A stretch of DNA of 6,030 nt from a virus (taxonomy: Duplodnaviria > Heunggongvirae > Uroviricota > Caudoviricetes), in the IMG/VR virus record IMGVR_UViG_2711768069_000002; one strand, 5' to 3'. Shown piece after piece: positions 3,965 through 4,186 of the stretch. Every line of letters begins with the position of its first letter. The first letter of the stretch is position 1. Under the pieces are notes generated by a model. It ran no database searches. It had not been told where the DNA came from and saw only the letters and a program-made list of their open reading frames with translations. The position numbers and the translations under genes are program-made.

Positions 3965-4186
3965 ATGGCAGATATCATTGATTCAGCATCAGAAATTGAA
4001 GAATTACAGCGCAATACAGCAATAAAAATGCGTCGCCTGAACTACCAGACTGTATCCGCAACTCATTGTTGTGAGTGTGGCGATCCGATAGATGAACGAA
4101 GACGCCTGGCAGTTCAGGGTTGTCGGACTTGTGCAAGTTGCCAGGAGGATCTGGAGCTTATCAGTAAACAGAGAGGTTCGAAGTGA
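3965..4186 (+). CDS. DksA/TraR-family C4 zinc-finger protein (lambda orf73-like), 73 aa
   Basis: The product contains CCECGDPIDERRRLAVQGCRTCASCQ, i.e. CxxCG-PI-E-RR…CxxC. From memory this matches the zinc-finger signature of F-plasmid TraR and phage TraR homologues, and the protein is the same length. Confidence 0.85.
   Translation: MADIIDSASEIEELQRNTAIKMRRLNYQTVSATHCCECGDPIDERRRLAVQGCRTCASCQEDLELISKQRGSK

Follow-up and report, generated by a model that had tools for sequence, protein, structure and literature searches.

An Stx-phage allele of lambda orf73, encoding a TraR-type C4 zinc-finger protein, in the early leftward operon of a mosaic lambdoid phage or prophage

In the stretch of viral DNA analysed here (6,030 nucleotides, hereafter the window), the early leftward pL operon of lambdoid phages runs along the + strand (Table 1); the Lambda_thermo RNA found on that strand fixed the direction of pL transcription. 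The order exo, orf60a, orf63, orf61, terminator, orf73 and ea22 matches that of lambda and also the annotation of Stx2a_F422, and orf60a-orf63-orf61-orf73-ea22 has been described as a conserved block in lambda, phi24B and 933W (PMC8614690).

Table 1. Features located in the window (coordinates count from its first base; cells are empty where nothing was recorded).
Feature	Coordinates	Strand	Basis
N-like antiterminator, 42% identical to phi24B N	123..395		
156-aa ORF	454..924		phrog_1636
cIII thermoregulator RNA at cIII start	1102..1160	+	Rfam Lambda_thermo, 88.5 bits
cIII, kil			reading of ORF list
gam	1467..1763		ORF list
bet	1769..2539		ORF list
exo	2551..3231		ORF list
orf60a homologue (DUF1317)	3222..3410		ORF list, Pfam
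orf63 homologue (DUF1382)	3383..3574		ORF list, Pfam
orf61 homologue	3585..3866		ORF list
Intrinsic-terminator-like hairpin and T6 run (AGGGAGCTACAGGCTCCTTTTTT), 54 bases 5' of orf73 ATG	3887..3911	+	
Candidate Shine-Dalgarno AGGGA, weak, 10 bases 5' of orf73 ATG	3950..3954	+	inferred from sequence
orf73 CDS, Stx-phage allele of lambda Orf73, TraR-type C4 zinc-finger protein	3965..4186	+	ORF list
D3-I-I-D6-S-A8 codons, DxxDxA motif	3971..3988	+	invariant with TraR and lambda Orf73
First zinc knuckle C35-C36-E37-C38 (C35 and C38 predicted ligands, C36 extra variable Cys)	4067..4078	+	ungapped on TraR C37/C40
R46 and R47 codons, equivalents of TraR R48 and R49	4100..4105	+	alignments with TraR and lambda Orf73
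Second zinc knuckle region C53-R-T-C56-A-S-C59 (C56 and C59 predicted ligands, C53 extra clade-conserved Cys)	4121..4141	+	C56/C59 on TraR C58/C61
Ea22-like gene, GTG start	4183..4740	+	PF13935 Ead_Ea22, E=8e-35
DUF551 protein	5347..5853		ORF list, Pfam

Several of the neighbouring genes had features of their own. The N-type antiterminator and phi24B N have the same arginine-rich N-terminus and an identical last 17 residues, with about 37 middle residues missing from the window protein. A gap of about 190 bases at 924..1115 marks the place where ssb/ea10 seems to be absent; in phi24B and Stx2a_F422 this gene sits between the vb_24B_11c homologue and cIII. No Pfam match was obtained for the ORFs at 454..924, 4737..4880 and 4923..5345, which gave strong PHROG matches to function-unknown families (phrog_1636, phrog_15283 and phrog_5117). 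The orf61 homologue is one continuous frame of 93 aa from the first ATG, of which Stx2a_F422 annotates 71 aa from MTPQQ. The A-run at 3711..3716 is A6 in the window and in phi24B and A7 in the lambda reference, and lambda 'orf61' (61 aa) is therefore frameshifted, with its C-terminal half in a separate 60-codon ORF, whereas the window orf61 is uninterrupted. A 31-codon ORF (3863..3958), which begins with GTG here and with ATG in lambda, runs across the orf61-orf73 spacer and holds the terminator-like hairpin; it is probably the 31-aa 'orf2313' of lambda ribosome profiling (PMC8614690). The Ea22-like protein has its N-terminal 16 residues and a coiled-coil segment (LLDE..RNQQYIKRRDQENEDIALTVGKLRVELE) in common with lambda Ea22, together with a 37-residue insertion after residue 16 and a C-terminal part unrelated to lambda Ea22.

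The hairpin upstream of orf73 is identical in lambda, for which a terminator, t2, was predicted between orf61 and orf73 (PMC4195576). With a t2-like hairpin in this position, expression of orf73 would depend on read-through or antitermination of the pL transcript. A sigma-70 promoter scan of the orf61-orf73 spacer yielded no + strand site at the thresholds used and no more sites in total than shuffled sequences, and it did not reproduce p1, the promoter predicted with BPROM in PMC4195576. In the Rfam scan of the whole window the cIII thermoregulator was detected alone, with no RNA element at or near orf73. The last four bases of orf73 (GTGA) hold both its stop and the GTG start of the ea22-like gene, a four-base overlap also present in lambda, and the GAGAGG found within orf73 just 5' of this GTG, also as in lambda, is likely the ribosome-binding site of the ea22-like gene; together, overlap and GAGAGG suggest translational coupling of the two genes.

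The orf73 frame in the ORF list starts with ATG, ends with TGA and encodes the 73-aa product MADIIDSASEIEELQRNTAIKMRRLNYQTVSATHCCECGDPIDERRRLAVQGCRTCASCQEDLELISKQRGSK, with cysteines at residues 35, 36, 38, 53, 56 and 59. A preliminary description of this DNA had pointed to a CxxCG…CxxC signature and a length of 73 aa, both of which held (the ORF is exact at 3965..4186, with C35-x2-C38-G39 and C56-x2-C59). The zinc signature is made of C35-C-E-C38-G39 and C56-A-S-C59, with 17 residues from C38 to C56, and this CxxC-17-CxxC arrangement (C35, C38, C56, C59) has the spacing of C37/C40/C58/C61 of TraR in an ungapped HMMER alignment, so that the cysteine spacing was kept. The same alignment, by placing C56/C59 on TraR C58/C61, led us to discard C53/C56 as the second zinc knuckle. 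An antisense 53-aa ORF (3975..4136) had no family support and was taken as spurious.

Pfam returned one match in Orf73, to PF01258 (prokaryotic DksA/TraR C4-type zinc finger, E=1.9e-9), with residues 33-64 on profile positions 4-35 of 36 and a score of 37.8 bits compared with the gathering score of 24.9 bits, thereby bearing out the proposed membership of the DksA/TraR family. Residues 1-71 matched phrog_54 'DksA-like zinc-finger protein' of the PHROGs (E=6.4e-26), and residues 3-64 were aligned on positions 1-64 of the 64 in NCBIfam TIGR02419 (C4_traR_proteo; E=8.4e-15), an end-to-end match whose 55.1 bits fell slightly short of the curated cut-off of 59.7 and which was not counted towards family membership. 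Because the Pfam match lies above its gathering score and the PHROG match runs end to end, the zinc signature can be placed far beyond chance level.

Sequence matches in the PDB were obtained with E. coli YbiI (2kgo, E=3.8e-5) and F-plasmid TraR (5w1s_M and 6n57_M, E=2-4e-4). YbiI, the best of them, is a chromosomal protein longer than Orf73 and aligned with residues 31-65 only, that is, the zinc finger, while the TraR alignment covered residues 1-64, was ungapped over the zinc finger and put R46/R47 on TraR R48/R49. The DxxDxA motif of TraR reaches the active-site region of RNA polymerase. In a three-way alignment of the window Orf73, lambda Orf73 and TraR, D3, D6, A8 and the four ligand cysteines were invariant, as were G39, P41, I42, E44, R46, R47, G52 and Q60. 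Orf73 and TraR have in common their 73 aa, a three-part architecture, D3, D6 and A8, the four cysteines, the R-R pair and the Q after the last cysteine; they are 31% identical, and Orf73 differs in a linker two residues shorter, in two extra cysteines and in being phage-borne in an early lytic operon, whereas TraR belongs to a conjugation operon.

An AlphaFold2 model built from 41 homologues reached a mean pLDDT of 77.5, with values of about 90 from residue 31 to residue 70, a span that takes in the zinc finger and most of the C-terminal helix, and low values (55-70) for the first 30 residues and for the tail. Helices were modelled at 8-27, 44-49 and 57-69 along with a zinc globule, and there is no coiled coil. 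The top Foldseek match in the PDB was RNA polymerase-bound TraR (6n57_M; probability 1.00, TM 0.57 over 72 aligned columns), with a modest E-value of 1.6e-3, followed by YbiI, TraR 5w1s, DksA/ppGpp-RNA polymerase complexes and DksA2. E. coli DksA has in common with Orf73 the PF01258 domain, the acidic tip motif, the site on RNA polymerase and the inhibition of rRNA promoters, the Orf73 side of this comparison coming from lambda; it differs in having about 150 aa, an acidic tip carried on a coiled coil and a need of ppGpp for full activity, whereas TraR and Orf73 have a single N-terminal helix and act without ppGpp.

One of the closest relatives is lambda Orf73 (exo-xis region; also called Orf2310), encoded by a 73-codon ORF on the minus strand of NC_001416 (2893..3114), between ea22 and orf61. 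The two proteins are identical at 69 of 73 residues (95%) with no gaps, and have in common the six cysteines, DxxDxA, R46/R47 and the C-terminal helix, as well as the slot between orf61 and ea22, the upstream terminator and the 4-base overlap with ea22. From lambda to the window there are four conservative substitutions (H27Y, A29T, I30V and V49A), none of which falls on a hallmark position; the downstream Ea22-like protein and the remaining region also differ. At the DNA level 12 differences were counted, eight synonymous and four non-synonymous, and with a resulting dN/dS of about 0.13, on these small counts, the frame is under purifying selection relative to the lambda allele. The lambda RefSeq record carries no orf73 CDS and leaves the ea22-orf61 interval blank, which makes it fair to have called this a known but easily overlooked phage function.

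The 222-base gene was found 100% identical in at least 24 phage records among the matches listed, including Stx2-converting phage 86, phage 2851, Stx2a_F422 and many Stx1a phages, and 181 phage records matched it at 90% identity or more. The identical gene is annotated as 'DksA-like zinc-finger protein', 'putative C4-type zinc finger protein' or 'TraR/DksA family transcriptional regulator', the last of these being the name of the 100% identical Stx2a_F422 protein; the phi24B protein is 95% identical. The set of Stx-phage Orf73 or 'C4-type zinc finger' proteins thus named takes in Stx2 phage 86, 2851, Stx2a_F422, VT1-Sakai, phi24B and 933W. The identical records show no difference at the level of the gene; the wider window is another mosaic, of which at most 78% is covered by any one phage record or complete E. 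coli genome. A large protein collection gave 177 homologues with E<=0.001; Escherichia, Citrobacter and Enterobacter supplied most of them, and every named one was of the TraR/DksA family. Judged by sequence and gene order, the window gene is the orthologue of phage lambda orf73 in a mosaic lambdoid (Stx-type) phage or prophage. Seventy-three codons are few, the Shine-Dalgarno is weak and lambda RefSeq lacks the annotation, as might be expected of a chance open frame that is no gene; against this stand the significant profile matches, the 177 homologues and the purifying selection, and expression of orf73 was confirmed by lambda ribosome profiling, as cited in PMC8614690 and PMC9239242. The conservation pattern and the published profiling effectively refute the chance frame, to which we give no credence.

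Conservation was counted over 91 full-length members of the Orf73 clade, down to 58% identity. The acidic motif was kept almost throughout (D3 in 89, D6 in 88 and A8 in 90 of the 91), the ligand cysteines C35, C38, C56 and C59 in 91, 88, 85 and 84 members, respectively, and R46 and R47 in 88 each. The two extra cysteines behaved differently from one another: Cys36 is variable (37/91), whereas Cys53 (4121..4123; on TraR V55) was kept in 82/91, about as often as C56 and C59. This likeness to the frequencies of the two ligands argues that Cys53 is under selection and is not a lambda peculiarity, and its conservation across the clade is the one minor new point made here.

The biochemistry of the lambda protein has been established by Gopalkrishnan et al. 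(mBio 2022; PMC9239242). In binding E. coli RNA polymerase, lambda Orf73 competes with DksA, half-maximally at about 0.65-1 uM. The purified protein inhibits rrnB P1 without ppGpp as strongly as TraR does (IC50 about 50 nM), and rpsT P2 is likewise inhibited without ppGpp; D3N or D6N removes most of its activity, and the induced protein complements a dksA deletion (PMC9239242). Its expression from pL lowered precursor rRNA to 29% and rpsT mRNA to 45% and slowed growth, and phage yield was 3- to 4-fold higher in wild-type lysogens than in deletion or D3A/D6A mutants, the lambda lytic promoters tested being unaffected (PMC9239242). In TraR, R48 contacts the secondary-channel rim helices and R49 contacts beta-prime Si3 (PMC9239242).

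Applied to the window, these results point to the following course of events. Orf73 would be transcribed within the early leftward pL operon, which runs from the N-like gene through cIII, kil, gam, bet and exo to ea22, and the protein, built as an N-terminal helix, a C4 zinc globule and a C-terminal helix, would bind host RNA polymerase in and around the secondary channel, as judged from lambda Orf73 and TraR. The DxxDxA tip (D3, D6, A8) would face the active site, R46/R47 would touch the rim helices and beta-prime Si3, while contact with beta Si1 would be made by the C-terminal helix. In this position Orf73, with no need of ppGpp, would destabilise open complexes at kinetically sensitive promoters, those of rRNA and ribosomal proteins; synthesis of new ribosomes would stop, host growth would slow and phage yield would rise. 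We give a probability of roughly 0.9 to Orf73 being a TraR-type regulator of the pL operon that binds RNA polymerase and inhibits ribosome synthesis like its lambda orthologue. The earlier proposal of an RNA polymerase secondary-channel regulator is accordingly supported by family, fold and genomic setting and by the 95% identical lambda Orf73 (PMC9239242). That the window allele would work by the same mechanism as lambda Orf73 is held with high confidence, because every implicated residue is kept and the differences lie in the variable linker (27, 29 and 30) or at position 49.

A shifted or weakened activity of the Stx-phage allele through H27Y, A29T, I30V and V49A appears highly improbable to us. 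Position 49 does lie in the globular domain, which touches beta-prime Si3, two residues past R47, and orf73 is not expressed alike in lambda and phi24B (PMC4195576); however, the hallmark residues are all unchanged, residues 27-30 form a linker that varies in the clade, and V30 and A49 are the clade consensus, lambda therefore being the outlier. The allele is moreover identical in dozens of Stx phages and its frame is the one under purifying selection.

The preliminary description had also spoken of ppGpp-like reprogramming of host transcription, of which only the inhibitory side is documented for lambda Orf73, while activation of thrABC, argI and rpoH P3 is weak, if any (PMC9239242). Promoters activated by TraR were likewise not clearly activated by the lambda orthologue, and dnaA was barely affected at single copy (PMC9239242). 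Since amino-acid promoters are not clearly activated and dnaA barely responds, lambda Orf73 is not a full TraR or ppGpp mimic, and from its weak effect on thrABC, argI and rpoH P3 a largely negative response of amino-acid biosynthesis promoters would be expected with the window protein.

According to a suggestion made in PMC9239242, the globular domain of Orf73 might be perturbed by its two extra cysteines. A function for Cys53, for instance as an alternative zinc ligand or as a redox-sensitive thiol that would make Orf73 responsive to oxidative stress, is an unlikely proposal drawn from its conservation; if true, a redox role could, speculatively, explain both why promoter activation fails and why, in Stx phages, orf73 has phenotypes and expression specific to H2O2.

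Published phenotypes of orf73 conflict, one group having described it as pro-lysogenic and yield-reducing and another as yield-increasing (PMC8614690 and PMC9239242). Lambda and phi24B deleted for orf73 left fewer surviving hosts and lysogenised less, a result taken to mean that the gene is pro-lysogenic (Zdrojewska 2019, as cited in PMC8614690); H2O2-induced phage development was delayed when a multicopy exo-xis plasmid carried a frameshifted orf73 (PMC4195576); and orf73, along with ea22, ea8.5 and orf55, has been implicated in a block of host replication initiation (cited in PMC9239242). These observations would fit a protein of TraR fold whose main role is to steer lysis and lysogeny or to block host replication initiation ('bin'), possibly through a target other than RNA polymerase. 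We regard such a role as quite unlikely: direct action on RNA polymerase could account for all of these phenotypes, and in vitro work on lambda Orf73 has demonstrated both promoter inhibition and direct binding at the DksA site, with no other partner demonstrated. The earlier orf73 deletions were perhaps polar on ea22, which is plausible because the stop/start overlap is present.

The reading of Orf73 as an RNA polymerase-binding inhibitor of ribosome synthesis is in any case already known, gene, family and mechanism having been published for the lambda orthologue and the identical Stx-phage gene being routinely annotated. As a discovery the finding matters little, orf73 being an ordinary member of its gene family. 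The allele is nevertheless one carried by Shiga-toxin-converting phages, in which a gain in phage yield from early-operon functions would be expected to bring a higher toxin output upon induction as well.
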